Below, piece after piece: positions 14,359 through 56,415 of a stretch of DNA of 64,000 bases. Position numbers and translations under genes: made by a program. Under the pieces are notes generated by a model, which did no database searches, was not told the DNA's origin, and saw only the letters and a list, made by a program, of their open reading frames with translations. Positions within the stretch are counted from its first letter, which is position 1. Each line of letters starts with the position of its first letter. Source of the stretch: Verrucomicrobiota bacterium (lineage in GTDB: Bacteria > Verrucomicrobiota > Kiritimatiellia > RFP12 > UBA1067); contig JBNMKZ010000003.1 of NCBI GenBank assembly GCA_050874585.1, positions 12,474 to 76,473 of the forward strand, in the 5' to 3' direction.

Positions 14359-15084
14359 ATGGACATTTTTGACGTTCGAGATTTGCATGTTCGATACGGC
14401 TCATACGAAGCCGTCAAGGGCGTGAGTTTCACGCTCCGAGAAGGGGAGATTCTGGGAATTGTCGGAGAGTCCGGCTCGGGCAAGTCGACCATTGCGAAAA
14501 CGCTCATCGGCATTGAGCGCCCTTCGTCAGGTGAAATCCGTCGGGCGGATGTGCCGGTGCAGATGGTCTTTCAGGATGCAGTTGGCTCTCTCAATCCGCG
14601 GATGACCGTGCGGCAGACTCTTTCGGAGGTCCTGAAGATTCGGCATTCGACGAAGTTTTCGGAGCCGAGTCAGTTGCTCGAACTGGTGGGGCTTTCACCC
14701 GCCGTCTTGGATCAGTACCCGCGTGAGATGTCGGGGGGGCAGTGCCAGCGCATTTCCGTTGCACGGGCACTCGCCTGTGAGCCGCGAGTCCTGATTGCCG
14801 ATGAACCGGTCAGCGCACTGGATGTCTCGGTTCAGGCCCGCGTCTTGAACTTGTTGCGTGACCTGCGTCGGGAACTCGGCTTGTCCATTCTTCTCATTGC
14901 GCACGACCTGGCCGTCGTGAAGAATGTCTGTGACCGCATTTGCGTGATGGAGCGCGGCCTTTTTGTCGATGTTGGTGATGCGGCAGAGGTTTTTGCGCAC
15001 CCGAAGAGTGAATATACGCGCCACCTCCTTTCCGCCGTTCCGGATATTTGCTATAATTCCCACTCCACAGGCAAGGACGATTAG
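14359..15084 (+). CDS. ABC transporter ATP-binding protein (peptide/nickel DppF/OppF-like), no adjacent permease
   Basis: Walker A 'GESGSGKST', signature 'MSGGQCQRISVARAL', Walker B 'LIADEP'. Its last 10 nt overlap the tRNA. Confidence 0.8.
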   Translation: MDIFDVRDLHVRYGSYEAVKGVSFTLREGEILGIVGESGSGKSTIAKTLIGIERPSSGEIRRADVPVQMVFQDAVGSLNPRMTVRQTLSEVLKIRHSTKFSEPSQLLELVGLSPAVLDQYPREMSGGQCQRISVARALACEPRVLIADEPVSALDVSVQARVLNLLRDLRRELGLSILLIAHDLAVVKNVCDRICVMERGLFVDVGDAAEVFAHPKSEYTRHLLSAVPDICYNSHSTGKDD

Positions 15085-15151
15085 CTCAGTTGGTTAGAGC
15101 AGGACCTTTACACGGTCAAGGTCGGGGGTTCGAGTCCCTCATCGTCCACCA
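15075..15151 (+). tRNA. tRNA-Val (anticodon TAC), CCA encoded
   Basis: Manual cloverleaf: acceptor GGACGAT/ATCGTCC, D-arm GCTC..GAGC, anticodon arm GGACC-TTTACAC-GGTCA, T-arm GGGGG-TTCGAGT-CCCTC, then ACCA. Confidence 0.9.
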
Positions 15152-44383: not shown

Positions 44384-45625
44384 ATGAATATTGTGAACGT
44401 TAGAATCGAGGAGATCACGCCCTACGCGAACAACCCCCGCAACAATGACGGTGCGGTTGAAAGCGTGGCGAAGTCGATTGAGAAGTTCGGCTTCATCGGC
44501 GCGATCATCCTGAACAAGGACAAGGTCATCATCAACGGCCACACCCGGGTGAAGGCCTGCAAGAAGCTGGGAATGGAGACCGTCCCGGCGATCATCGTCG
44601 ACCACCTCACCAAGGAGCAGGAGGACGCGCTCCGCATCGCCGATAACAAGACGGGCGAAATCGCGGAGTGGAACGAGGATCTGCTCCGCGCCGAGCTGAA
44701 GGCCCTCGAAGAGGCCGGGTTCGGCATCGAGGATCTCGGCTTCGACAATTCCGAGCTGGAGGCTCTGCTCGAAGGCGACGTTTCCGTCTCGGTCGGCGAG
44801 ACCGATCCGAACGCCGCCCCGGAAGTGCCGGAGGTCGCGGTGTCCCGTCCGGGCGAGGTGTATGTCCTTGGGGACCACCGGCTCGTCTGCGGCGATTCGA
44901 CCAAGGCAGAGGACGTCGGCAGGGTTTGCAAGGAGGGCGAGGCCGACATGTGGCTCACCGATCCGCCCTACAACGTCGCCTACGAGGGGTCGAACGGGCT
45001 CACGATACAGAACGACTCGATGGAGGACGTGAAGTTCCGCGAGTTTCTGCGCACGGCGTTCGGTCATGCCGAGAAGACCTTGAAGCCGGGTGCGCCGTTC
45101 TACATCTTCCACGCGGACTCGGAGGGCTACAACTTCCGGGGCGCATGCCACGACATCGGACTCCGCGTCCGCCAGTGTCTTGTGTGGAAGAAGAACGCCC
45201 TCGTCCTCGGGCGGCAGGACTACCAGTGGATTCACGAGCCGTGCCTGTACGGCTGGAAGGAGGGCGGGCCCCATCCCTGGTACGCCGACCGCTCCCAGAC
45301 CACGGTCATGGAGTTCAACAAGCCGAAGAAGAACGACGTCCATCCGACGATGAAGCCGGTGGAGATGCTCGTCTACCTCCTGCAGAACTCCTCGAAGCGC
45401 GGTGACGTCGTACTCGACACCTTCGGCGGCAGCGGCTCGACGCTGATCGCATGCGAACAGACCGGGCGCGTCTGCAAGACCGTCGAACTCGATCCGCGCT
45501 ACTGCGACGCGATCCGCCGCCGGTGGGCCGAGTTCAAGCACGGCGAGGGCTGCGACTGGGCGAAGCTCACCCCGGTCGAGGGAAGCGCGGAAGCGGCGGG
45601 GGAGGAAGCCCCGGCCGAGACGTGA
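44384..45625 (+). CDS. ParB-like nuclease domain fused to an N6/N4 DNA methyltransferase
   Basis: ParB-N 'ITPYANNPRNNDGAVESVAKSIEKFGFIGAIILNKDKVIINGHTR'. Methylase 'LTDPPYN', 'HPTMKPVEM', 'VLDTFGGSGST'. Confidence 0.85.
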   Translation: MNIVNVRIEEITPYANNPRNNDGAVESVAKSIEKFGFIGAIILNKDKVIINGHTRVKACKKLGMETVPAIIVDHLTKEQEDALRIADNKTGEIAEWNEDLLRAELKALEEAGFGIEDLGFDNSELEALLEGDVSVSVGETDPNAAPEVPEVAVSRPGEVYVLGDHRLVCGDSTKAEDVGRVCKEGEADMWLTDPPYNVAYEGSNGLTIQNDSMEDVKFREFLRTAFGHAEKTLKPGAPFYIFHADSEGYNFRGACHDIGLRVRQCLVWKKNALVLGRQDYQWIHEPCLYGWKEGGPHPWYADRSQTTVMEFNKPKKNDVHPTMKPVEMLVYLLQNSSKRGDVVLDTFGGSGSTLIACEQTGRVCKTVELDPRYCDAIRRRWAEFKHGEGCDWAKLTPVEGSAEAAGEEAPAET

Positions 45626-45831
45626 GGTATTACGCCCGACAGTATCGTGTACAGGATCCACAGGGACGTCACAATGCCCACGGAAGCACACGGGAACACG
45701 GGCGTTAGCTGCCGTTAAGCGGGCTTCAACCCCCGTTTAGCGGCACAATCGGGGTCACGACCCAGGGAAGATAGAGAGTCTACACTGCCGAGACACTATC
45801 GCGGCAGAAGCACACGAAAGGCGAACAGGAT

Positions 45832-46857
45832 ATGATCATGACAAGCGAATACTGCGCGGTGGGGCATCCCGACCGCACATGCGACTACATTGCGAGCTTT
45901 TTGCTCGACAAGTACCTTGAACACGACCGCACGGCGCGGGTCGCGCTGGAGGTTCAGCTGAAGGACAACTTCTGCACGGTTGCGGGGGAGGTGTCCTCGA
46001 CCTGGCACTTCACGGAACGCGAGATCGCGGAACTCGTCCGCGAGGCGATCCGGAAGGTCGGCTACACCGACGAGTACCGCGACAAGTGGGGGCGTGAGAA
46101 CGCCATCAGCGGCAGCGACGTCGAGGTGACAATCCACATCTCGCAGCAGTCCGGCGACATCGCCCAGGGCGTGAACCGCGAGGGCTGGGGCGACCAGGGG
46201 ATCTTCTTCGGGATGGCGGTGAACGACCGCGCCCACGGCTACATGCCTCTCGACTACTGGCTGGCGCGTGAGGTCGCGAACGCCCTCGCGAAGAGCGGCT
46301 GGGGCGGCATCGACATCAAGACGCAGGTGACCGTCGAGGACGGCAGGCCGATTGAGTGCGTGGTCGCGATTCCGCTCGACCCGGCGACCGAGGACGAGAA
46401 GCGGCGGCTCATCGCCGACTACGTCAAGGCAACGGTCGGCGCGGACTGCGAGGTGATCGTGAACGGGACGGGGCGGTATATGACGCACGGTCCCATCGGT
46501 GACTGCGGCACGACGGGCCGCAAGCTCGTCGTGGACTTCTACGGCGGCAACTCCAAGATCGGCGGCGGCAGTCCGTGGGGCAAGGACCCCACCAAGGCGG
46601 ATGTTGCGCTCAATCGCCTCGCCCGGAAGCGGGCATTGGACTGGCTCCTGGAGCAGAACCTCTACGAGGTGCGCTGCGCGATCAGCTGCGCCATCGGGCG
46701 GTCGCAGATCCGCATCACGATGACGGACGGCAACGGGAACGTCCTCAAGAGCTGGACGGAGGAGTGCCCGACGAGCCATGTGATCGACGAGCTTCGCCTC
46801 GCCGAGCCGGACTACGCCGAGACCTGCCGCAACGGACTCTTCGGCAATGAGCGTTGA
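45832..46857 (+). CDS. metK: Divergent, short S-adenosylmethionine synthetase homologue (phage-encoded)
   Basis: 'GHPDRTCDYIAS' (compare GHPDKxCDQ), 'GDQGIFFGMA' (compare GDQGxMFGYA), 'GGGSPWGKDPTKADVA' (compare GGGAFSGKDxTKVDRS). 341 aa. Confidence 0.75.
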   Translation: MIMTSEYCAVGHPDRTCDYIASFLLDKYLEHDRTARVALEVQLKDNFCTVAGEVSSTWHFTEREIAELVREAIRKVGYTDEYRDKWGRENAISGSDVEVTIHISQQSGDIAQGVNREGWGDQGIFFGMAVNDRAHGYMPLDYWLAREVANALAKSGWGGIDIKTQVTVEDGRPIECVVAIPLDPATEDEKRRLIADYVKATVGADCEVIVNGTGRYMTHGPIGDCGTTGRKLVVDFYGGNSKIGGGSPWGKDPTKADVALNRLARKRALDWLLEQNLYEVRCAISCAIGRSQIRITMTDGNGNVLKSWTEECPTSHVIDELRLAEPDYAETCRNGLFGNER

Positions 46858-47080
46858 GTTCCAGGCGTTCCTCTGGGGACTGACCGCGCTCTCCCTCCTG
46901 GGGACGGCGCTGAACGTCAGGAAGCGGATCTCGTGCTTCTACATCTGGACGGCCGTGAACCTCGCGTGGGTGTTCGTCGACTGCAACCAGGGGCTGTGGG
47001 CGAGATCCGTCCTCGACGGCGTACACTTCGCCTTCGCGGTGTGGGGCATCTGGGACTGGACGAGGCGTCCACCCAGATGA
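46847..47080 (+). CDS. PnuC-like three-TM small membrane protein (single repeat unit)
   Basis: 'LLGTALNVRKRISCFYIWTAVNLAWVFV...GVHFAFAVWGIWDW' resembles one PnuC repeat. 77 aa. It overlaps the metK-like stop. Confidence 0.45.
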   Translation: MSVEFQAFLWGLTALSLLGTALNVRKRISCFYIWTAVNLAWVFVDCNQGLWARSVLDGVHFAFAVWGIWDWTRRPPR

Positions 47081-47096
47081 ACCCCGCATCGCGGAT

Positions 47097-47552
47097 TCAG
47101 GCGCGGCGGATCGCGAAGAGGCCGCGGGCGGTTTTCACGAAGCGGGAGGCCTCGCCCTTGGCCTTGATCTCGCGGAGGATCGCGGAGTAGAGCGTCTGCT
47201 CCGGGGTCTTGCCCGCACCCGGCTCCCAGAGCTTCTGCTCCTTGGCGGCGTCGATCATGCGCCGGACGGTCATCGGCTCGTCCGAGCGTTCGAGGACGGC
47301 GGCCGCCGCATTGACGAGACTGAGCTTGCGCTCCTCGGCGGGATCTGCGGGCTTGCGCTCCGGCGCGGCCTTCTTCTCGGCGGGGACTTCCGCCTGCGCC
47401 TCGGTGGTGATATTCTTCACTGTCATTTCCTTTCCCGACTCCGTCTTGACCTTCCAGCCGCCGTTCGGAGCCTTGCCGACGACCTTCACCTTGACCTCGT
47501 TGCGGCCGACCTTGACCGTTCCGCGAGTGCCGACTCTGATTTTTTCGTTCAT
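47097..47552 (-). CDS. HARE-HTH (winged-helix) domain protein
   Basis: C-terminus 'LSLVNAAAAVLERSDEPMTVRRMIDAAKEQKLWEPGAGKTPEQTLYSAILREIKAKGEASRFVKTARGLFAI'. Start at MNEKIRVG. Confidence 0.55.
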   Translation of the reverse strand: MNEKIRVGTRGTVKVGRNEVKVKVVGKAPNGGWKVKTESGKEMTVKNITTEAQAEVPAEKKAAPERKPADPAEERKLSLVNAAAAVLERSDEPMTVRRMIDAAKEQKLWEPGAGKTPEQTLYSAILREIKAKGEASRFVKTARGLFAIRRA

Positions 47553-47672
47553 TTCGTTCTTTCCTTTCGCTTGATCCCCAGCGGGGCGTTGACGGGACAC
47601 ATGATGCCGTAATCGTCCGCAAATAGCCAGTGCGAATGTGAAGAAATCTCAACAACCCAAAAAGGAGGCCGT

Positions 47673-47861
47673 ATGGCTAACATTGCTTCGGTTCGGAAGG
47701 ACGGCATGGTGCGCGTCCTCGCCGGGAGCGGGTCGCGGACGTTCTCCGAGGAATCCCTCGAGGCGGACATCGCGGCGGGCGCACCCGTCAACGAGGACGG
47801 GACGATCAACCTCATCGCCTACGTGGCGTGGATACTGAAAGGGAACCTGAATGGCGATTAA
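47673..47861 (+). CDS. Small protein upstream of terminase (possible small-terminase or DNA-recognition role)
   Basis: Strong RBS 'aaaggagg'. 62 aa. It overlaps the TerL start by 11 nt. The function is inferred from position only. Confidence 0.45.
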   Translation: MANIASVRKDGMVRVLAGSGSRTFSEESLEADIAAGAPVNEDGTINLIAYVAWILKGNLNGD

Positions 47862-50133
47862 CCCCTCCAAGCTCAAGCCCGCCGAGCTGGTGAAGCTCGT
47901 CAACTCCACCGACTTCGGAACCGTCGCCTCCCCGGCGCAGGTGTACAGGCACTTCGAGCGGGCGGGCTACCGCATCGCCAGTGTCGATGACCCGAGGTGC
48001 ATCAACTTCTTCCGCTATGCGGCGTGGCTCGTCGACATGAAGAACGCCGCAGCCGAGGAGGAGCGGCAGCAGGGCGACTACGCATCCTTCCGCGCCGAGA
48101 TGGCGAGGAAATCCCTTGAGAAGTCGCTCGAAGGGCGAGACATCGGCGACCTCCCGCCCGTGGACGATCCCGAGCGGAAGGAGAAGTGCCGCCTCGACTT
48201 CAAGCTCTTCTGCGAGACGTACTTCCCGGAAGTGTACCAGCTCAAGTGGTCGGACGACCATCTGCGGGCGATTGCGAAAATCCAGAAGTCCGTCCTCGAG
48301 GGCGGACTCTTTGCCTTGGCGATGTCTCGTGGTTCGGGCAAGTCTTCGCTCACGGAGACCGCCGCCATCTGGGCGATGCTCTACGGTCACCGAGAGTTCG
48401 TGGTTCTCGTGGGTGCGTCAGAATCGGCCGCCCTCGAAATGCTCGACTCGATCAAGACTGAGTTCGAGGTGAACGAACACATCGCCGCCGACTTCCCGGA
48501 GGTAGCCTACCCGATCCAGAAGCTGCAGGGTATCGCGAACCGGTGCGCCGGTCAGCTCTACCACGGGGAGCGGACGCGCATCACGTGGACGGCGAATGAG
48601 ATCGTCCTCCCGACCATCGCTGGCGCGGCGTCCTCGGGCGTGATCGTCCGGGTGGCGGGCATCACGGGCCGAATTCGCGGCATGAAGTACAAGAAGCCGG
48701 ACGGGCGCACGATCCGCCCGGAGTTCGTCGTGATCGACGATCCGCAGACCTCCGAGTCGGCGGGGTCCATCGAGCAGACGAGGAAGCGCGTCCGTGTGCT
48801 TGCCGGGGACATCTTGGGCCTCGCCGGTCCCGGAAAGAAGATCTCGGGCATCATGCCCTGCACCGTGATCCGCCCCGGCGACATGGCCGAGCAGATCCTC
48901 GACAAGCTCAAGCACCCGGAATGGAACGGGGAGCGGTGCAAGATGATGTACCAGTTCCCGAAGAACGAGGAGCTGTGGAACCGCTACGCCGACCTCCGGG
49001 CGGACGAGCTTCGCGAGAAGGGGACGTTCGAGGAGGCGACGGAGTTCTACCGCCAGCACCGCGAGGAGATGGACGAGGGCGCGGTCGTGTCGTGGCCTGA
49101 CCGCCACAACTACGACGAGATCAGCGCGATCCAGCATGCGATGAACTTGAAGTTCACGGACGAGGCGGCATTCTGGGCGGAGTACCAGAACGAGCCGCTC
49201 CCGGAGGACTTGGGTTCGGACGAACAGCTCACGGTCGACGGGATCGTGAACAAGCTGAACGGACACTCGCAGAAAACGGTCCCCGTCTCGGCGAACCACC
49301 TCACGATGTTCATCGACGTGCAGAAGACTCTGCTCTTCTACGTCGTGTGCGCGTGGGACGACGACTTCACCGGCTCGGTGATCGACTACGGGACGTGGCC
49401 CGACCAGCGGCGGCGGTACTTCTCTCTCGCGGACGCGAACCCCACCCTTCAGTCGAAGTTCCCGAGGGCGGGCTTGGAGGGCTGCATCTACGGCGGCCTC
49501 AAGTCGCTCACGGAGGACTACCTTTCCCGCGAGTTCACGCGGGACGACGGGGCGGCGATGAAGGTCGAGAAGTGCCTCATAGACGCGAACTGGGGTCAGT
49601 CGACCGACGTCGTGTACCAGTTCTGCCGCGAGTCCGCACACGCGAACGTGATCGTGCCGAGCCACGGCAAGTACATCGGAGCAAGCTCGAAGCCCATGTC
49701 CGAGTACAAGAAGGCGGCGGGCGACCGGGTGGGCCTCAACTGGCGGATGCCGAACATCCGTGGAAAGCGGGCGGTCCGGCACGTCATCTTCGACGCGAAC
49801 TACTGGAAGTCGTTTGTCGCCAGCCGCCTCCTGATGGCGGTCGGCGACCGTGGCTGCCTCTCCCTCTGGGGGCGGAGCGGCGAAACGCACATGCTCTTCG
49901 CCGAGCATCTGACCGCCGAGTACCGGGTGAAGACCGAGGGTCGCGGACGGAAGGTGGAGGAGTGGAAGATGCGCCCGGAGGCGAAGGACAACCACTGGTG
50001 GGACGGCGCGGTCGGATGCGCGGTCGCGGCATCGATGGTCGGGTGTGTGCTCGCGGGCACGGATGCACACGCCAGAGAGAAGCCGAAGGTCAAGGTGAAA
50101 CTCTCCGACCTTCGGAAGGCGCGGAACAGGTAA
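47851..50133 (+). CDS. terL: Terminase large subunit with an N-terminal DNA-binding-like extension
   Basis: Walker A-like 'MSRGSGKSS', 'EFVVIDDPQTSES', and C-terminal nuclease-like region. 760 aa. Positioned before the gpW-like and portal genes. Confidence 0.8.
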   Translation: MAINPSKLKPAELVKLVNSTDFGTVASPAQVYRHFERAGYRIASVDDPRCINFFRYAAWLVDMKNAAAEEERQQGDYASFRAEMARKSLEKSLEGRDIGDLPPVDDPERKEKCRLDFKLFCETYFPEVYQLKWSDDHLRAIAKIQKSVLEGGLFALAMSRGSGKSSLTETAAIWAMLYGHREFVVLVGASESAALEMLDSIKTEFEVNEHIAADFPEVAYPIQKLQGIANRCAGQLYHGERTRITWTANEIVLPTIAGAASSGVIVRVAGITGRIRGMKYKKPDGRTIRPEFVVIDDPQTSESAGSIEQTRKRVRVLAGDILGLAGPGKKISGIMPCTVIRPGDMAEQILDKLKHPEWNGERCKMMYQFPKNEELWNRYADLRADELREKGTFEEATEFYRQHREEMDEGAVVSWPDRHNYDEISAIQHAMNLKFTDEAAFWAEYQNEPLPEDLGSDEQLTVDGIVNKLNGHSQKTVPVSANHLTMFIDVQKTLLFYVVCAWDDDFTGSVIDYGTWPDQRRRYFSLADANPTLQSKFPRAGLEGCIYGGLKSLTEDYLSREFTRDDGAAMKVEKCLIDANWGQSTDVVYQFCRESAHANVIVPSHGKYIGASSKPMSEYKKAAGDRVGLNWRMPNIRGKRAVRHVIFDANYWKSFVASRLLMAVGDRGCLSLWGRSGETHMLFAEHLTAEYRVKTEGRGRKVEEWKMRPEAKDNHWWDGAVGCAVAASMVGCVLAGTDAHAREKPKVKVKLSDLRKARNR

Positions 50134-50154
50134 AGGAAAAAAGTTCGTTTTTTT

Positions 50155-50374
50155 CGGGACTGGAGAGGGTCGGGCCTCGAAAAACGTGAGTGCGGAAAGG
50201 ATCGTGTGCGGTTCGCAATCCGGCTTTCGGAAAAATCTTCGGATTTTTCGGGACTGGAATACCCCGGGCCTCGAAAAACGTGCCTGCGGAAAGGATCGCA
50301 TCGGTCGCCGCGAGATCTTCGCGTGAATCTTCGGATTCGCCGGGACTCGGCGGCGTCGGGCCTCGTAAAACGTG
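50155..50374 (+). promoter_or_regulatory. Copies 4-6 of the bipartite motif as a tandem array (period 92-94 nt) upstream of the C5-methylase/head operon
   Basis: CGGGACT at 50155, 50249 and 50341. Each is followed after exactly 13 nt by CCTCG(A/T)AAAACGTG at 50175, 50269 and 50361. Confidence 0.6.
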
Positions 50375-50651
50375 GCTGCGGGCTGAGTACGTTCCCGTCG
50401 GAGGCGGTATCCGAAGGCGGGAAGACCGGGTTCTTGTTGTTTCCTTTCCCGGTCCGGGGCGTGGCCGCGCCCTCAAGCGGGGGGTTGTTGTCCCGCGCGG
50501 CCTTTAAGCATCTTTCGGGATGCGCGGCCGCCGTCGAGCCGTTCCTGGACGGCTGGCGGACGCGGGGGCGGCACGAGCCCTCACAAACGGCGGACGCGCC
50601 GCACGTGCAGGCCTTGTCAAAGTGCGCCGACGGGCGTGGAACGGAGTCGAA

Positions 50652-52847
50652 ATGAGGTATGGAAGCGTGTGCAGCGGCATCGAGGCCGCATCCGTAGCCT
50701 GGAAGCCCCTCGGCTGGAAGTGCGCATTCGTCTCGGAGATCGAGAAGTTTCCGGCGGCGGTACTCGCCGAGCGCTTCCCCGAGGTTCCGAACCTCGGCGA
50801 CTTCACGAAGATCGAGAGGGGGAACTACGAGGGCGATATCGACCTTCTCGTCGGAGGCACACCATGTCAGGCGTTTTCAATCGCCGGTTTGAGGAAAGGA
50901 CTTAACGATGAAAGAGGCAATCTTGCGCTTGAGTTTGCAAGGCTGGCTTTTCGCACACATGCCCGATGGGTGGTCTGGGAAAATGTCCCCGGCGTACTAT
51001 CAAGTGGGCAAGGAGGCGATTTTGCCGCCTTCCTATCGCTCCTCGTCGGATGGGAGGTCAAAGTCCCCGACGGGAAGTGGAGAAAGGCCGGACTCGTCAC
51101 CGGAGCCCCCGGATGCTTCAGCGTGGGTTGGCGAGTGCTTGACGCTCAATATACCCGAGTTCAACAATTTCCAAGGGCGATCCCGCAGCGAAGGCGTCGT
51201 GTCATCCTTGTCGGAAGTCTTGGTTCGTGGGAGGATTGCGCCAAGGTACTTTTTGACGGTGAAATGTGCGGCGGGGATGCTCCGCCGCGTCGCGAAGCGC
51301 GGCAAGCAGCTCCCGGCGATGCTGGAGCGGGCCCTGCGGGCACTGGTTGGGACTTCAGCTGGTGGGACGGAGGGCAACGCGCCAGCACCCTGACGACGCG
51401 CTCGATCGGGCAGATGATGCCCGACAAGGACCAGCTTCCGTGCGTCATCGACACGAGGTGGCACAACTACGCGACCGATGGCTCGTGTCCGGCACTTCTC
51501 GCGACCGACTACAAGGAGCCGAAGGCGGTGGTCGACCCGTGTCCGACCTTGGACGCATCCTATCCGGGCAAGCAGAACAACCAAGACATCACGAAACTGG
51601 TGTGCTACGAGAACCACGGACAGGACTCGCGCATCCGCGAGACCGGCGAGGTCGCGCCCTCGATCCCCGCGCAGGCGGGAACTGGCGGCAACAACCTCCC
51701 GCTCGTCCAGAAGGTCTTTGCAATCGACTCGATGGCCTCGAACGCCATGAAGTCGAAGAATCCGCACAGCGGAAGCCGCGAGATCGACGTCGCCACGACC
51801 CTCGACACGACGAACCCCACGCCCTCCAAGAACCAGGGCGGCATGGCAATCGTCGAGGAGGCGGTCGCCATCGCCGAGAACGTGATTGGCCGCAAGGTCG
51901 AGAACGGCGGCAACGGCATCGGGGCGAAGGAGGGCGTGTGCTACACGCTCGATACGGTCGGAGTCCACGGAGTCTGCTACCCGATCGACATGATGAACGT
52001 CGACGGCAGGGGTGACAACTTCAAGGCGAAGTGCTACGGCAAGCCCGGTTCGGCAGCCTACGCATTGACGCGCCGTCGTCCGTCGGGCGTGTGCCTCCCC
52101 GGGGTGGTGCGCCGCCTCGTGCCGGTCGAGGCCGAGCGGCTCATGGGCTTTCCGAGGATTGTCACGGGCGATGTGTCGGTGATGACCAAGGACGAGTATA
52201 TCGTCTGGCTTCTGGCGACGCATCGGATCGAGGTCAACTGCGAGGCGGGTGAGGTGTTCTCGATGCGGACGGGAGGCGGCAATCCCTGCCTTCCGCGTCG
52301 GCTGAACGGAACGGTGCTGAACGGGTATCGCGTCGTGTCCCTTCGAGAGGGCGACGTGAAGAAGCAATGCCGCGTCCATAGGATCGTCTGGATCGCGAAG
52401 CACGGGCTTGTCCCGGACGGGTATGTCGTTGACCACATCAACAACGACAAGCTCGACAATCGGATCGAGAACCTTCAACTGCTGACCCAGGCGGACAATT
52501 CGACGAAGGCGGCGGCGGACGGCCTCTACAGAACGGGAGATGACAACCCGTCGACCAAGCTGACGGACAAGGAGGTCGAATGGATATTTGACGATTACTG
52601 GTCCGGCATGGGGTCGATCCGCGAGTTGGCGGAGAGGGCGGGCATCTCAAAGTCACGGGTTCAGCAGATCATCCACATGGAGGATTGGACGCAGATTCCT
52701 TGGCGCGGCAAGCCCGCCGAGGAATGCCCGGACGGCCCCCGCTACAAGGCGCTGGGGAACTCGATGTGTACGAACGTGATGGCGTGGATCGGAGAAAGGA
52801 TCGATGCAGTCGAGAAGGAGAACGCGAATGGACGACAAGAAGCTTGA
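50652..52847 (+). CDS. DNA (cytosine-5)-methyltransferase with an in-frame HNH endonuclease/HTH insertion before motif X
   Basis: Motif I 'YGSVCSGIE', IV 'GGTPCQAFSIAG', VI 'ENVPGVLS', VIII 'QRRRRVILVG', IX 'RRLVPVEAERLMGFP', then ~190 aa including HNH 'VHRIVWIAKHG...VDHINNDKLDNRIENLQLL', then X 'YKALGNSMCTNV'. Start at 50652 after 'acggag'. Confidence 0.8.
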   Translation: MRYGSVCSGIEAASVAWKPLGWKCAFVSEIEKFPAAVLAERFPEVPNLGDFTKIERGNYEGDIDLLVGGTPCQAFSIAGLRKGLNDERGNLALEFARLAFRTHARWVVWENVPGVLSSGQGGDFAAFLSLLVGWEVKVPDGKWRKAGLVTGAPGCFSVGWRVLDAQYTRVQQFPRAIPQRRRRVILVGSLGSWEDCAKVLFDGEMCGGDAPPRREARQAAPGDAGAGPAGTGWDFSWWDGGQRASTLTTRSIGQMMPDKDQLPCVIDTRWHNYATDGSCPALLATDYKEPKAVVDPCPTLDASYPGKQNNQDITKLVCYENHGQDSRIRETGEVAPSIPAQAGTGGNNLPLVQKVFAIDSMASNAMKSKNPHSGSREIDVATTLDTTNPTPSKNQGGMAIVEEAVAIAENVIGRKVENGGNGIGAKEGVCYTLDTVGVHGVCYPIDMMNVDGRGDNFKAKCYGKPGSAAYALTRRRPSGVCLPGVVRRLVPVEAERLMGFPRIVTGDVSVMTKDEYIVWLLATHRIEVNCEAGEVFSMRTGGGNPCLPRRLNGTVLNGYRVVSLREGDVKKQCRVHRIVWIAKHGLVPDGYVVDHINNDKLDNRIENLQLLTQADNSTKAAADGLYRTGDDNPSTKLTDKEVEWIFDDYWSGMGSIRELAERAGISKSRVQQIIHMEDWTQIPWRGKPAEECPDGPRYKALGNSMCTNVMAWIGERIDAVEKENANGRQEA

Positions 52848-53031
52848 GGAGCTGACCGAGCAGATGCTCGCCCAGCCCAAGGTCGTTGAAGTGGACGGCC
52901 AGCGCGTCGAGAACCAGTCGGTCGGCGACCTTCTCAAGGTGGCGAGCTACTTCGCCTCGAAGCGGGCGACGCAGGGACGGCGATGCCCCCTGCGCGTCAC
53001 GAAGATGGCGTCGGGAGGTGCGGTGCTATGA
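52828..53031 (+). CDS. gpW-like head-tail joining protein
   Basis: 67 aa. 'aaggag' lies 7 nt upstream. 'VVEVDGQRVENQSVGDLLKVASYF' resembles lambda gpW. Located between the terminase and portal genes. Confidence 0.55.
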   Translation: MDDKKLEELTEQMLAQPKVVEVDGQRVENQSVGDLLKVASYFASKRATQGRRCPLRVTKMASGGAVL

Positions 53032-54437
53032 TATGGTTCGGAAAGAAGAATTCCGCGCCAGTCAAGGCGAGGTTCTCGCTCCCCCGGTGGATCAAGGCCC
53101 GCTTCGATGCGGCGCAGACCACGAAGGACAACGCGAGGCACTGGGCCGCAGCCGAGTTCCTCTCGGCTGATGCGGAGGCCGATCCGCAGGCGCGGAAGAT
53201 CCTCCGCACCCGCGCCCGGTACGAGGTGCAGAACAACTCGTATGCGCGCGGCATCGTCTCGACGATTGCGAATGACACCGTGGGAACGGGGCCGCGCCTC
53301 CAGATGCTCCTCGAATGCGAGGACGCGAACCGCCGGATCGAACACGACTTTGCCGTCTGGGCGAAGCGTGTGCATCTTCCGGCGAAGCTGCGCACGATCC
53401 GCATGGCCCGCTGTCAGGACGGCGAGGCCTTCGTGATCATGGCGCAGAACCCGAATTTGAAGTCGAACGTGAAGCTGGACCTTCAGCTGATCGAAGCAGA
53501 CCGGGTTACGGATGACGAGCTGAACGCTGACGCGACCTCAGTTGACGGCATCACGTTCGATCCCTTTGGAAACCCGAAGTCGTACAAGGTGCTGAAGAAC
53601 CATCCCGGCGGGACGGCGAGCTTCGACCTCGACTTCAAGCTCGTGAAGGCGGAGGACATGATCCACGTCTTCCGGCAGGACAGGCCCGAGCAGCACCGGG
53701 GAATCCCGGAGATCACGGCGGCTCTTCCGCTCTTCGCGCACCTGCGGAGGTTCACCCTCGCGGTGGTGAGCGCGGCGGAGGCCGCCGCCGACTTCGCGGG
53801 CGTGTTGTACACCGACGCTCCCGCGAACGGCGAGGCGGATGCGGTCGAGGCGATGGACACGATCCAGCTCGAGCGCAACATGCTCCTCACGATGCCGGGC
53901 GGCTGGAAGATGTCGCAGGTGGACCCGAAGCAGCCGGTCACGACCTACGGGGAGTTCAAGCACGAGGTGCTGAACGAGATCGCACGGTGCCTGAACATCC
54001 CGTACAACATCGCGGCCTGCAACAGCTCCGGCTACAACTACGCCTCCGGGCGTCTCGACCACCAGACGTACTACAAGTCGCTGAAGGTCGACCAGGCGTT
54101 CGTCGAGGAAACGGTGCTTGACCGCATCCTCGAAAGGTGGCTGCGGGAATGGGCGCTCGTCAACCGCGAGAAGGTGGACGAGTGCGACTGCAACCACGTG
54201 TGGTTCTGGGACGGCCACGAGCACGTCGATCCCTCGAAGGAGGCGACGGCGCAGGAGAAGCGTCTCGCGAACAACACGACAACCCTCGCGGCGGAGTACG
54301 CCAGGCAGGGGAAGGACTGGGAGACGGAGCTTCGCCAGCGGGCGAAGGAGAAGAAGCTCATGGACGAACTCGGGCTTTCGGTGCCAGACGCCGCGCCCGT
54401 ACAGAACGGAAAGGAAGACGATGAAGACAACGAGTGA
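53028..54437 (+). CDS. Portal protein (lambda gpB family)
   Basis: 'RFDAAQTTKDNARHWAAAEFLSADAEADPQARKILRTRARYEVQNNSYARGIVSTIANDTVGTGPRLQ'. ATGA overlap with the gpW-like stop. Confidence 0.85.
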   Translation: MIWFGKKNSAPVKARFSLPRWIKARFDAAQTTKDNARHWAAAEFLSADAEADPQARKILRTRARYEVQNNSYARGIVSTIANDTVGTGPRLQMLLECEDANRRIEHDFAVWAKRVHLPAKLRTIRMARCQDGEAFVIMAQNPNLKSNVKLDLQLIEADRVTDDELNADATSVDGITFDPFGNPKSYKVLKNHPGGTASFDLDFKLVKAEDMIHVFRQDRPEQHRGIPEITAALPLFAHLRRFTLAVVSAAEAAADFAGVLYTDAPANGEADAVEAMDTIQLERNMLLTMPGGWKMSQVDPKQPVTTYGEFKHEVLNEIARCLNIPYNIAACNSSGYNYASGRLDHQTYYKSLKVDQAFVEETVLDRILERWLREWALVNREKVDECDCNHVWFWDGHEHVDPSKEATAQEKRLANNTTTLAAEYARQGKDWETELRQRAKEKKLMDELGLSVPDAAPVQNGKEDDEDNE

Positions 54438-56415
54438 ATTTCTTGAGATCACCGCCGCATCCGGCGGGAAGAGGCCGAGCGTGAAGGGACTCGCCTATTC
54501 GGGCGGGAAGATGCGACTCTTCGGCTGGTCTCGCCCCGTCGTGGTGGACATGGCGGGGATGAACATACCCGAGTCGGTGCCCTTGCTCACCAACCACGTG
54601 AACGACACGCTTTGCCGCGTCGGGGTGGTGACGGCGACCAAGGGTGCCGAGGGGCTCGAGATCGCGGGCGAGATCGTCGCAGAGGGGGAGGAGGCCGAGA
54701 ACATCGTCGCGCAGGGCAGGACCGGCGCGGACTGGCAGCTCTCCATCGGCGCGGAGGTCGAGGCCGCTGAACTCGTCCAGGAGGGGAAGCGCACGATCAA
54801 CGGGATCGAACACGATGCTCCCTTCTACCATGTCACGAAGTCAACCCTCCGCGAGGTGTCCGTGGTCGCGGTGGGGGCCGACAAGGCAACTCACATGAAG
54901 GTCACGGCAAAACTCGAACTGAAAGGCAATTCCATCATGGAACCCCAGAAGAAAGAAACTGCGGCAGCTCCCAAGGTTGAGGCCGCCGCTCCCTTAAACA
55001 CGCCCGCAGCCCCCGCCGCACCGGCGAGGGTCGAGGCGGCCGCCGCTCCCTTAAACACGCCCGCCTCGCCCGCCGTGGACGCGAAGGCCATCGCCCAGGA
55101 GGCGATCAAGGCCGAGCGCGACCGCGTGAACATGGTCAAGTCCGTGTGTAACAGCGAGTTTCCGGAGATCGAGGCGAAGGCCATCTCCGAGGGCTGGGGC
55201 AAGAACCAGGTGAACGAGGCGGTGCTGGCGGCGTTCCGCGCCAAGCAGCCCACCACCGACGTCAACATCACCATCAAGAAGGAGAACGCGATGACCGCGA
55301 AGCGACTCGAAGCCGCGCTTTCCCTCCGCGCCGGCATCAGCGGCGACAAGCTCGTGAAGGACATGGGCGAGGAGACCGTCGAGGCGGCGATGAAGGACGC
55401 GGACATGCCGCTCGCCGGCATCCTCGGCGAGTGCATGAGGATCGAGGGCATGAGCGTCCCCCGCACGTTCGACAACCAGGCGATCAAGGCGGCGTTCTCG
55501 ACCGTCTCGCTCCCCGGCATCCTCTCGAACGTTGCAAACAAGAAGCTCATGCAGGCGTATGAGGCGCAGCCCATCATCGCCACGAAACTCTGCACGACGG
55601 GCGACCTCTCCGACTTCAAGGAGAACGACCGCTTCCGCCTCACCGACATCGGCGACCTGAAGCCCATCGGCGCGGACGGCGAGATCAAGGACGGGGCTCT
55701 TTCCGAGGAATCGGCGAAGAACCAGCTCGAGACCTACGCCAAGAAGTTCTGCCTCACGCGCAAGATGATCATCAACGACGATCTCGGCGCGTTCCTCAAG
55801 GTGCCGACGGCGATGGGCAACCGCGCCGCCCGCCTCGTGGACCAGCTCTTCTTCAAGCGCCTCATGGCGAACCCGACGGGCGTGGACGGCAAGGCGCTCT
55901 TCTCGGCGGCGCACAAGAACCTCCTCTCCGGGGCGAACTCGGCCCTCTCGGCGGACTCGCTCAAGAAGGCGATCCAGCTCTTCACCGACCAGGTGGACTC
56001 GGACGGCCAGCCGATCAACGTGGAGCCCTCGATCCTGCTCGTCCCGACCTCGCTCAAATTCCTCGCGGCGGAGCTGACGCAGGGCACGACCCTCGTCATG
56101 TCCGGCGGCGCGGACAACGTGGTCAGGCCGGCGATCAACGTCCTCGCCGACCAGAACCTGCAGATCGTCTCGAGCCCGTACCTCTCGAACTCGAAGTACG
56201 CAGGCTCATCCGAGGCGTCGTGGTACCTCTTCGGCAAGCCGGGCGTCGTGGACACCTTTGAGATCGGATACCTCAAGGGCAAGCGCACCCCAACCGTCGA
56301 GCGCGGCGACCTGGACTTCAACGTCCTCGGCATCTGGTTCCGCGTGTTCTTCGACATCGGCATCCGCGAGCAGGATCATCGCGGCATGGTCAAGGCGACG
56401 GGCGCGGCCGCGTAA
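54421..56415 (+). CDS. Prohead protease - linker - major capsid protein fusion
   Basis: N-terminal ~165 aa is prohead-protease-like. An Ala/Pro linker carries a duplicated 'AAAPLNTPA' unit. The C-terminal ~330 aa is HK97-fold MCP-like ('WYLFGKPGVVDTFEIGYLKG...VFFDIG'). Confidence 0.75.
   Translation: MKTTSEFLEITAASGGKRPSVKGLAYSGGKMRLFGWSRPVVVDMAGMNIPESVPLLTNHVNDTLCRVGVVTATKGAEGLEIAGEIVAEGEEAENIVAQGRTGADWQLSIGAEVEAAELVQEGKRTINGIEHDAPFYHVTKSTLREVSVVAVGADKATHMKVTAKLELKGNSIMEPQKKETAAAPKVEAAAPLNTPAAPAAPARVEAAAAPLNTPASPAVDAKAIAQEAIKAERDRVNMVKSVCNSEFPEIEAKAISEGWGKNQVNEAVLAAFRAKQPTTDVNITIKKENAMTAKRLEAALSLRAGISGDKLVKDMGEETVEAAMKDADMPLAGILGECMRIEGMSVPRTFDNQAIKAAFSTVSLPGILSNVANKKLMQAYEAQPIIATKLCTTGDLSDFKENDRFRLTDIGDLKPIGADGEIKDGALSEESAKNQLETYAKKFCLTRKMIINDDLGAFLKVPTAMGNRAARLVDQLFFKRLMANPTGVDGKALFSAAHKNLLSGANSALSADSLKKAIQLFTDQVDSDGQPINVEPSILLVPTSLKFLAAELTQGTTLVMSGGADNVVRPAINVLADQNLQIVSSPYLSNSKYAGSSEASWYLFGKPGVVDTFEIGYLKGKRTPTVERGDLDFNVLGIWFRVFFDIGIREQDHRGMVKATGAAA

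Follow-up and report, generated by a model that had tools for sequence, protein, structure and literature searches.

A putative non-splicing homing endonuclease of the I-HmuI type carried in frame within a phage C5-cytosine DNA methyltransferase

The element described here lies in a phage gene on a 64,000-nucleotide (nt) stretch of a Verrucomicrobiota bacterium assembly (GCA_050874585.1, contig JBNMKZ010000003.1, positions 12,474 to 76,473 of the forward strand), which is referred to as the window. The gene encodes a C5-cytosine DNA methyltransferase of 731 amino acids (aa) and contains, between its motifs IX and X, an inserted block of 177 codons. The block has the modular architecture, the fold and the intact catalytic residues of an I-HmuI-like HNH endonuclease and evolves under purifying selection. 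It is present or absent at a single site among related methylases, and its history is incongruent with that of the host gene. The block is probably a mobile, non-splicing, selfish homing-endonuclease gene of the I-HmuI/HNH_3 type, inserted in frame and translated as a tolerated domain of the methylase.

The methylase and its insertion site

The methylase gene begins with an ATG at 50652, giving the start MRYGSVCSG that is common to all close homologues. Its initial annotation as a C5-methylase with motifs I, IV, VI, VIII, IX and X holds, as all six were located in this order (Table 1). Pfam PF00145 covers aa 2-190 (E 2.6e-30), in agreement with the dcm model TIGR00675, which scores 108.9 bits against a cut-off of 100.65. 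The modelled N-terminal domain resembles the fold of M.HhaI (Foldseek, E 2e-13). Between motifs VIII and IX lies a target-recognition region (TRD), which is long (~280 aa) and modular, and the homologous proteins P0001-P0120 range from 404 to 1201 aa. Short repeated blocks, such as CYENH.QDSRI... and AIAEN.IGRK.ENGGNG..., are common to the TRDs of these homologues. The organisation recalls that of multispecific phage C5-methylases, in which several target-recognition modules are combined. The full-length AlphaFold2 (AF2) model is poor, with a predicted template modelling score (pTM) of 0.40. For the TRD and the linkers, the predicted local distance difference test (pLDDT) is below 50, and consequently there is no reliable model of the TRD.

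The borders of the insertion were fixed by alignment with uninterrupted homologues, which bears out its placement in frame between motifs IX and X. Empty homologues read ERLMGFP-DG-WTQIPWRGK, and in the window the same two anchors enclose the 177 aa of the block. The block thus replaces the two DG codons of the empty alleles, between CCG and TGG, and makes the gene 525 nt longer in net terms. RLMGFP and WTxIPW are 2 aa apart in more than 40 of the best 120 homologues, and 15 others have 174-178 aa between them; the rest do not show one of the two anchor patterns used for this count. The site is a two-residue hinge between motif IX, in the small domain, and motif X, in the helix that leads back to the catalytic domain. 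Being in frame in this hinge, the block shares the transcript and the polypeptide of the methylase. Two observations, the persistence of purifying selection and the integrity of motif X, suggest that the occupied allele may retain methylase activity.

At both block junctions (window 52147-52164 and 52675-52690) the 8-nt sequence GAGGATTG is found, 1 nt out of phase. Its junction counterpart in the occupied contig L002 is CCGAGGAT, and it is absent at the junctions of the phage contig L009. A target-site duplication was considered as a general feature and is probably not one, given the shift in phase and the absence in L009.

Table 1. Positions of the methylase, its inserted element and the surrounding features in the window
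Feature	Position	Strand	Details
C5-cytosine DNA methyltransferase gene with in-frame insertion	50652..52847	+	731 aa; best PADLOC model 'orphan methyltransferase'
Catalytic N-terminal domain, aa 1-203	50652..51260	+	Pfam aa 2-190; AF2 pLDDT mostly 73-95; Foldseek M.HhaI
Motif I VCSGIEAAS, aa 6-14	50667-50693	+	
Motif IV GGTPCQAFS, aa 68-76	50853-50879	+	catalytic Cys72
Motif VI VWENVPG, aa 108-114	50973-50993	+	
Motif VIII QRRRRV, aa 179-184	51186-51203	+	
Variable target-recognition region (TRD), aa 204-485	51261..52106	+	between motifs VIII and IX
Motif IX VRRLVPVEAERLMGFP, aa 486-501	52107..52154	+	left border of insertion
Inserted element (RIVTGD...QQIIHMED), aa 502-678	52155..52685	+	531 nt / 177 aa; no stop codon
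Conserved Met511 codon (MTKDEY)	52182..52184	+	start point of free-standing endonuclease relatives
HNH_3 (PF13392) catalytic core, aa 574-617	52371..52502	+	Pfam E 9e-19, 67.3 bits vs cut-off 24.8
Catalytic residues D594-H595, N607, N616	52431-52436, 52470-52472, 52497-52499	+	
C-terminal helical/helix-turn-helix (HTH) DNA-binding unit, aa 639-675	52566..52676	+	AF2 helices; weak HTH_28
Methylase resumes: WTQIPWRGK..., motif X, C-terminal helix, stop codon	52686..52847	+	tail identical to uninterrupted allele P0001
Motif X RYKALGNSMCTNV, aa 697-709	52740-52778	+	
Three tandem 70-nt direct repeats	50135-50204, 50229-50298, 50321-50390	+	spacing 94 and 92 nt
Copies of the intergenic motif	18130(-), 32008, 32669, 44089, 50171, 50265, 50357		
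ParB_N + N6/N4 methylase	44384-45625		
S-adenosylmethionine (SAM) synthetase	45832-46857		
Nicotinamide mononucleotide (NMN)-transporter-like open reading frame (ORF)	46847-47080		
HARE-HTH protein	47097-47600	-	
Large terminase terL	47851..50133	+	GpA_nuclease Pfam match
67-aa ORF in lambda gpW position	52828..53031	+	conserved as 67-aa gene in L001-L005
Lambda-family portal protein	52983..54437	+	Phage_portal_2, E 1e-56

The block as a complete I-HmuI-like endonuclease

The homing-endonuclease-type HNH that was initially placed at ~52371-52500 is confirmed by a strong HNH_3 match at nearly the same coordinates. The region aa 490-690, modelled alone with 70 relatives, reaches an AF2 pLDDT of 86.5. 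The sole significant fold match of the block in the PDB is I-HmuI (1U3E; Foldseek E 2.4e-6, 176 columns, probability 1.00), and it spans the whole enzyme, comprising the β-sheet domain, the HNH core, the helices and the C-terminal HTH. A sequence search also finds 1U3E (E 4e-4), with the D-H, N and N residues aligned at identical spacing. The block is accordingly placed, by sequence and by model, with I-HmuI-like enzymes that combine an HNH_3 core of the Asp-His/Asn/Asn type with a modular β-sheet, HNH and HTH fold. A PADLOC 'homing endonuclease' model covers aa 531-675.

The catalytic residues D594, H595, N607 and N616 are intact, and thus the HNH is not degenerate. In alignments of 71 and 51 family members, the His and both Asn residues are invariant, and the Asp is at least 90% conserved. 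Compared with the occupied allele L002, the ratio of nonsynonymous to synonymous substitution rates (dN/dS) is 0.155 for the block and 0.20 for its HNH core, and the flanking parts of the methylase give 0.12 and 0.19. The HTH-like segment seen earlier is supported by the AF2 model, where aa 654-675 belong to a three-helix unit, but its HTH_28 match is weak and below the Pfam cut-off. Relatives of the block carry Sigma70_r4 or HTH_23 matches in the C-terminal unit.

An exhaustive HMMER search returns two populations of relatives. The closest are embedded in proteins of ~350-900 aa, while the distant ones are free-standing proteins of 165-230 aa, 33-44% identical to the block. The alignment of the latter begins at query residue 10, which is the Met of MTKDEY, and extends to about residue 173. 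Since this alignment runs from Met511 through the HTH, the block corresponds to a complete endonuclease ORF preceded by a 9-aa linker. On sequence and model, it is a complete coding sequence of an I-HmuI-like HNH homing endonuclease with predicted nuclease activity. One of the free-standing relatives resides in an SPbeta-like phage, with no methylase adjoining. The Met of MTKDEY is conserved in the alignments and several gene calls begin at Met511. An internal translation start at this codon was also considered; it is unsupported, as neither the window nor L009 has a Shine-Dalgarno-like sequence upstream of it.

Distribution of the block

The nearest homologues of the methylase (P0001-P0010, 92-95% identical) are devoid of the block, and in the closest clade it is found in three of about 34 members. 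Long HNH-bearing linkers between motifs IX and X are therefore not the norm of the subfamily, given also the 15 cases among the best 120 homologues; they are recurrent and dispensable. Metagenome X3 holds both alleles, one contig lying within the block and another being empty. The empty contig follows the window to 52150 and continues with CCCCGACGGATGGACGCAGATCCCGTGGCG, which is the empty allele. In runs X21, X24 and X25, exclusively empty alleles were found. A contig of run X22, compared with window 52211-52573, carries the block with 13 differences in 363 nt and is unlike the window upstream of 52211. This suggests either a different sequence context for the block or a breakpoint of recombination within its N-terminal part.

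At the same site, the same block occurs in at least about 50 divergent clusters of C5-methylases. At E<1e-30 there are 49 representative clusters (50% identity), and PF00145 is present in 46 of 51 embedded representatives. In the phage contig L009, the embedded block sits in the methylase of a YqaJ/RecT recombination module, far from any terminase. Host gene and insert do not share one history. For P0034 and P0048, the host parts are 96-98% identical and the inserts 62%. The opposite applies to P0034 and P0038 (host 72%, insert 97%) and to P0039 and P0051 (host 77%, insert 100%). Judged by the sequences, this sporadic occurrence at one site, with a history independent of the host gene, is the distribution expected of a mobile element.

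Related contigs come from metagenome-assembled genomes of the gut labelled Kiritimatiellaeota and Verrucomicrobia. The embedded architecture was found in none of 50,697 cultured-phage GenBank records; Mannheimia phage 587AP2 has an HNH gene after the methylase gene, not inside it. Many proteins of ~260-310 aa (P0123, P0126, P0129, P0135, P0163, P0164 and others) consist of motif IX, the HNH block and motif X, behind which comes a second motif I (SLFDGIGGF...WASEIEEFP); they end ~45 aa further on. In L009 (3673-5795), a protein with the order motif IX, HNH, motif X and second motif I is present as well, and the upstream methylase part is split off by a frameshift.

Proposed mechanism

In the proposed cycle, the whole endonuclease frame, extending from the Met with which it once began through the HTH, would have become embedded behind a 9-aa linker. 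The block would fold as an autonomous excursion from the methylase, which would tolerate it. When an occupied phage meets a relative with the empty allele, the HNH enzyme may nick or cut the conserved empty site, for which ...GGC TTY CCN GAY GGN TGG ACN... is a candidate. Recombinational repair of the cut site would then copy the element in. In occupied alleles, the element splits this site. The nuclease activity, the target and the homing steps are those expected from the behaviour of the I-HmuI family together with the distribution described above.

In the initial annotation, one option was a domesticated homing endonuclease that had mobilised the methylase as a moron. A homing-endonuclease element is indeed what is found, but the mobile unit is the 525-nt insertion, and there is no sign of domestication. 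The embedded blocks may, with roughly even chances, constitute a widespread and so far undescribed I-HmuI-like lineage that is specialised on the motif IX/X hinge of C5-methylases in phages of unrelated bacterial hosts. Such a lineage would represent a third strategy besides introns and inteins, namely a permanent, folded and tolerated domain that borrows the transcription and translation of its host gene.

Several points weigh against a selfish homing element. Nuclease activity, target site and homing event are all deduced rather than observed. Within-methylase recombination is frequent in phages (PMC9957025) and could spread the block without a nuclease of its own. I-HmuI is elongated, with its ends far apart on the DNA, and insertion of such an enzyme into a two-residue hinge might impair either partner. 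The full-length model is too low in confidence to judge the packing of the domains, so that the tolerated excursion is a prediction. Finally, no degenerate copies occur among the best 51 representatives, although a classical homing cycle predicts some decay; the absence of decayed copies would likewise be compatible with a domain useful to its host.

Alternative explanations

The absence of decay leads to a minority possibility, in which the domain has been co-opted and the fused methylase-nickase serves the phage, maybe while still being mobile; a combined methylase-nuclease enzyme was also among the roles considered initially. It might, for example, cut unmethylated DNA of the host or of competitor phages while the own DNA is protected, or stimulate recombination. 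The invariant catalytic residues, the lack of decayed copies among 51-71 family members, and purifying selection resembling that on the methylase are in line with such a benefit, as is the exclusive fusion of the block to C5-methylases and not to other genes. A precedent, as outlined in PMC11620839, is an intron endonuclease that aids phage competition. In a bolder version, the fusion would couple self-methylation with the nicking of unmethylated rival genomes, forming a phage-phage weapon in one polypeptide. However, the block is dispensable, as the nearest relatives have the identical gene order and no block; the incongruence between insert and host is typical of a selfish element, and the fold is that of homing enzymes with long targets, not of restriction enzymes. 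At the other extreme, the block could be an inert relic of a once-mobile endonuclease, a passive or merely DNA-binding appendage that is spread only by recombination of methylase genes. Such recombination within the gene is documented in phage methylases (PMC9957025), and the modular TRD lengths show that shuffling takes place in this family. Nevertheless, a relic is improbable in view of the low dN/dS across the block and its HNH core, the invariance of H595, N607 and N616 in the family, and the confident and complete AF2 model of the block.

The two remaining explanations concern splicing and DNA packaging. Removal of the block by protein splicing, as an atypical intein, or by RNA splicing, as an intron, is hardly credible, even though the methylase family has genuine inteins at motif IV and the terL of relatives probably has one. 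As to an intein, the block is without a Hint Pfam domain and its fold is that of I-HmuI only. It also lacks the junction residues C/S...HN|C/S/T, with R as first residue (E or S in relatives), ED as the last two (QG or IG in relatives) and W at position +1, in accordance with the initial statement that no splice junctions are evident. As to a group I or II intron, Rfam finds none, either at the gathering threshold or at E<=1, and the block is coding from end to end and in frame on both sides. There is no room for a ribozyme, because the whole block is endonuclease coding sequence under in-frame selection. Apparent skips of the block in RNA-labelled public runs, which represent contigs of other strains and may contain DNA, are not spliced products, because they carry the DG codons and the single-nucleotide polymorphisms of empty alleles. 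The explanation by packaging draws on the position beside terL, its sole support. In HK97-like phages, a small HNH protein of the gp74 type, conserved beside the terminase genes, is needed together with terminase for cos cleavage. That the block is such an accessory nuclease fused to a methylase, as was initially considered, is contradicted by the relatives and by the fold and has a close to negligible probability. Phages with a 98%-identical terL and the same gene module have no HNH at this place, and the same insertion is found in L009 in a methylase away from any terminase. Moreover, the domain is HNH_3/I-HmuI-like, with a β-sheet and an HTH and without a zinc-finger HNH, and is not of the gp74 type.

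Four homologues (P0020, P0039, P0050 and P0087) contain inteins at the catalytic motif IV (GGTP|CF.AG...VHN|CQ), separate from the HNH block. The intein is a mini-intein in P0020 and larger in P0039, P0050 and P0087, and each of these proteins also has the HNH block at IX/X.

Comparison with known systems

The closest published analogues of the selfish in-frame endonuclease favoured here are the ShiLan domain and a lone LAGLIDADG insertion, both in actinobacteriophage methylases. The ShiLan domain was first described in PMC9957025 and studied further by Arsenault, Gosselin and Gogarten (2025, PMC11855218). According to the definition in PMC11855218, it is a non-splicing, read-through insertion in the frame of a phage methylase with disjunct distribution, and the block agrees with this definition. 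Both elements show a homing-like, disjunct distribution among close relatives, an association with HNH, and an insertion predicted to loop out. The HNH of ShiLan is not in the methylase frame but in the third one, where it has a GTG and a TAA of its own (PMC11855218), whereas the endonuclease of the block is in the methylase frame. The in-frame translation of ShiLan is an unrecognisable, poorly folded segment, while that of the block is an endonuclease domain of the methylase. The two also differ in the methylase family, in the site, which is the C5 motif IX/X hinge here, and in the HNH subtype, which is I-HmuI/HNH_3 without zinc fingers here. Like the block, the lone LAGLIDADG domain of Taj gp79 (PMC9957025) is in frame in a phage methylase where neither an intein nor an intron is detected, and it is predicted to be a separate domain. 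It belongs to another nuclease family and is reported to be apparently inherited vertically within one phage group, in contrast to the block, which is host-incongruent and polymorphic between near-identical genes.

I-HmuI itself, an HNH homing nickase of the Bacillus phage SPO1, has the same overall architecture as the block at an identity of ~22%. It is a separate ORF in a self-splicing group I intron of the DNA polymerase gene, whereas the block is intron-less and fused to its host protein. The block shares its protein family with the free-standing HNH_3 homing endonucleases of phages, as reflected in the identities given above. Like the mobE type in Aeromonas phage nrdA (PMC3045599), the latter invade conserved phage genes without a splicing element. 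Each keeps a start and a stop codon of its own and either occupies an intergenic position or divides the host gene into two polypeptides, while the block leaves the host protein in one piece. HNH-containing inteins are likewise in-frame homing elements at conserved sites of phage genes, but they possess the Hint domain and the splice junctions that the block lacks. Literature searches for an in-frame I-HmuI-like element at the hinge between C5 motifs IX and X found no such case, the ShiLan papers being the most specific ones retrieved.

Gene neighbourhood and upstream repeats

The lambda-like gene order reported for this region stands in part. TerL upstream and the portal protein downstream are supported by Pfam, but the label 'gpW' for the 67-aa ORF rests on its position only, because this ORF has no match in Pfam or PHROGs. 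In relatives without the insertion, the genes follow one another as in the window: SAM synthetase, NMN-transporter-like ORF, HARE-HTH protein, terL, methylase, 67-aa ORF and portal. The methylase had been described as wedged between terL and gpW, which cannot be attributed to the HNH, because the HNH-free relatives keep it at the same place. Gene order in these relatives indicates that phages of this group normally carry a methylase between terL and portal, and that it is not a moron brought by the HNH.

The terL of the window is 98% identical to that of the insertion-free contig L003, outside an insertion in the terL of L003 itself. In L003 (2074-5439), and also in L004 and L005, terL encodes 1121 aa, of which 361 aa form an in-frame insertion directly behind the Walker A sequence GSGK, at a point that corresponds to the position after aa 164 of the window terL. 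The inserted sequence starts with ALALDT, ends with VPTHN followed by S, and contains LLQGIMDTDGH; it is probably an intein with a LAGLIDADG endonuclease, as judged from these signatures. The window terL does not have the intein and the relatives' methylase does not have the HNH block, so that neighbouring genes carry different mobile insertions in different phages.

Upstream of terL, window 44384-47600 is occupied by a methylation-related module (Table 1). L001 has in addition a free-standing HNH_3 gene before the ParB-methylase, while the window has just one HNH_3. Downstream, the long ORF at 54118-56415 comprises both a prohead protease (Peptidase_S78) and a major capsid domain (Phage_capsid_4 / Mu gpT-like); in relatives it measures 677-690 aa. 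A tRNA gene is located at 15075-15148 (Rfam, 66 bits).

The three tandem motif copies noted before the methylase gene, with a period of 92-94 nt, are real. The repeats hold a bipartite intergenic motif of ~40 nt, TTCGGGACTGRA-N7-YGGRCCTCGAAAAACGWG. Its 18-nt core occurs in seven copies in the window, compared with 0.1 expected, and all seven lie between genes and share the orientation of the gene that follows. Each of the first three window copies is preceded by a hairpin that is rich in A/U and has a TTCG loop. The methylase spacer contains three copies here, two in L003, L004 and L006 (one of them degenerate) and none in L001, and metagenome X3 holds a spacer variant that is 94 nt shorter. 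No sigma-70 promoter match was found in the repeats, and the methylase leader is not shared with the other methylase gene. An RNA structure or a known RNA family was considered and discarded, as the repeats show no significant RNA fold and no Rfam match. The repeats are a plausible candidate for a phage-specific promoter or operator of a Kiritimatiellota phage.

Significance

On the usual view, a homing endonuclease gene spares the gene that it invades only by means of an intron or an intein, or by lying between genes. The exact empty site, the close empty and occupied alleles, the confident fold and the dozens of independent backgrounds described here suggest that a whole endonuclease can simply stay in the host protein. 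The observations on ShiLan and the lone LAGLIDADG domain, made in actinophages, are thereby extended to the C5-methylases of other phages, those of the gut among them, and to a nuclease that is in frame. Several questions become testable, namely whether the hinge of a methylase can accommodate a DNA-binding nuclease of 177 aa, whether such fusions are active in homing, and whether they bring a benefit in phage competition. The permissive insertion site in C5-methylases and the natural methylase-nickase fusion may also be of interest for enzyme engineering. For annotation, such proteins would best be described as methylases carrying a mobile endonuclease, rather than as restriction-modification fusions or terminase cofactors.

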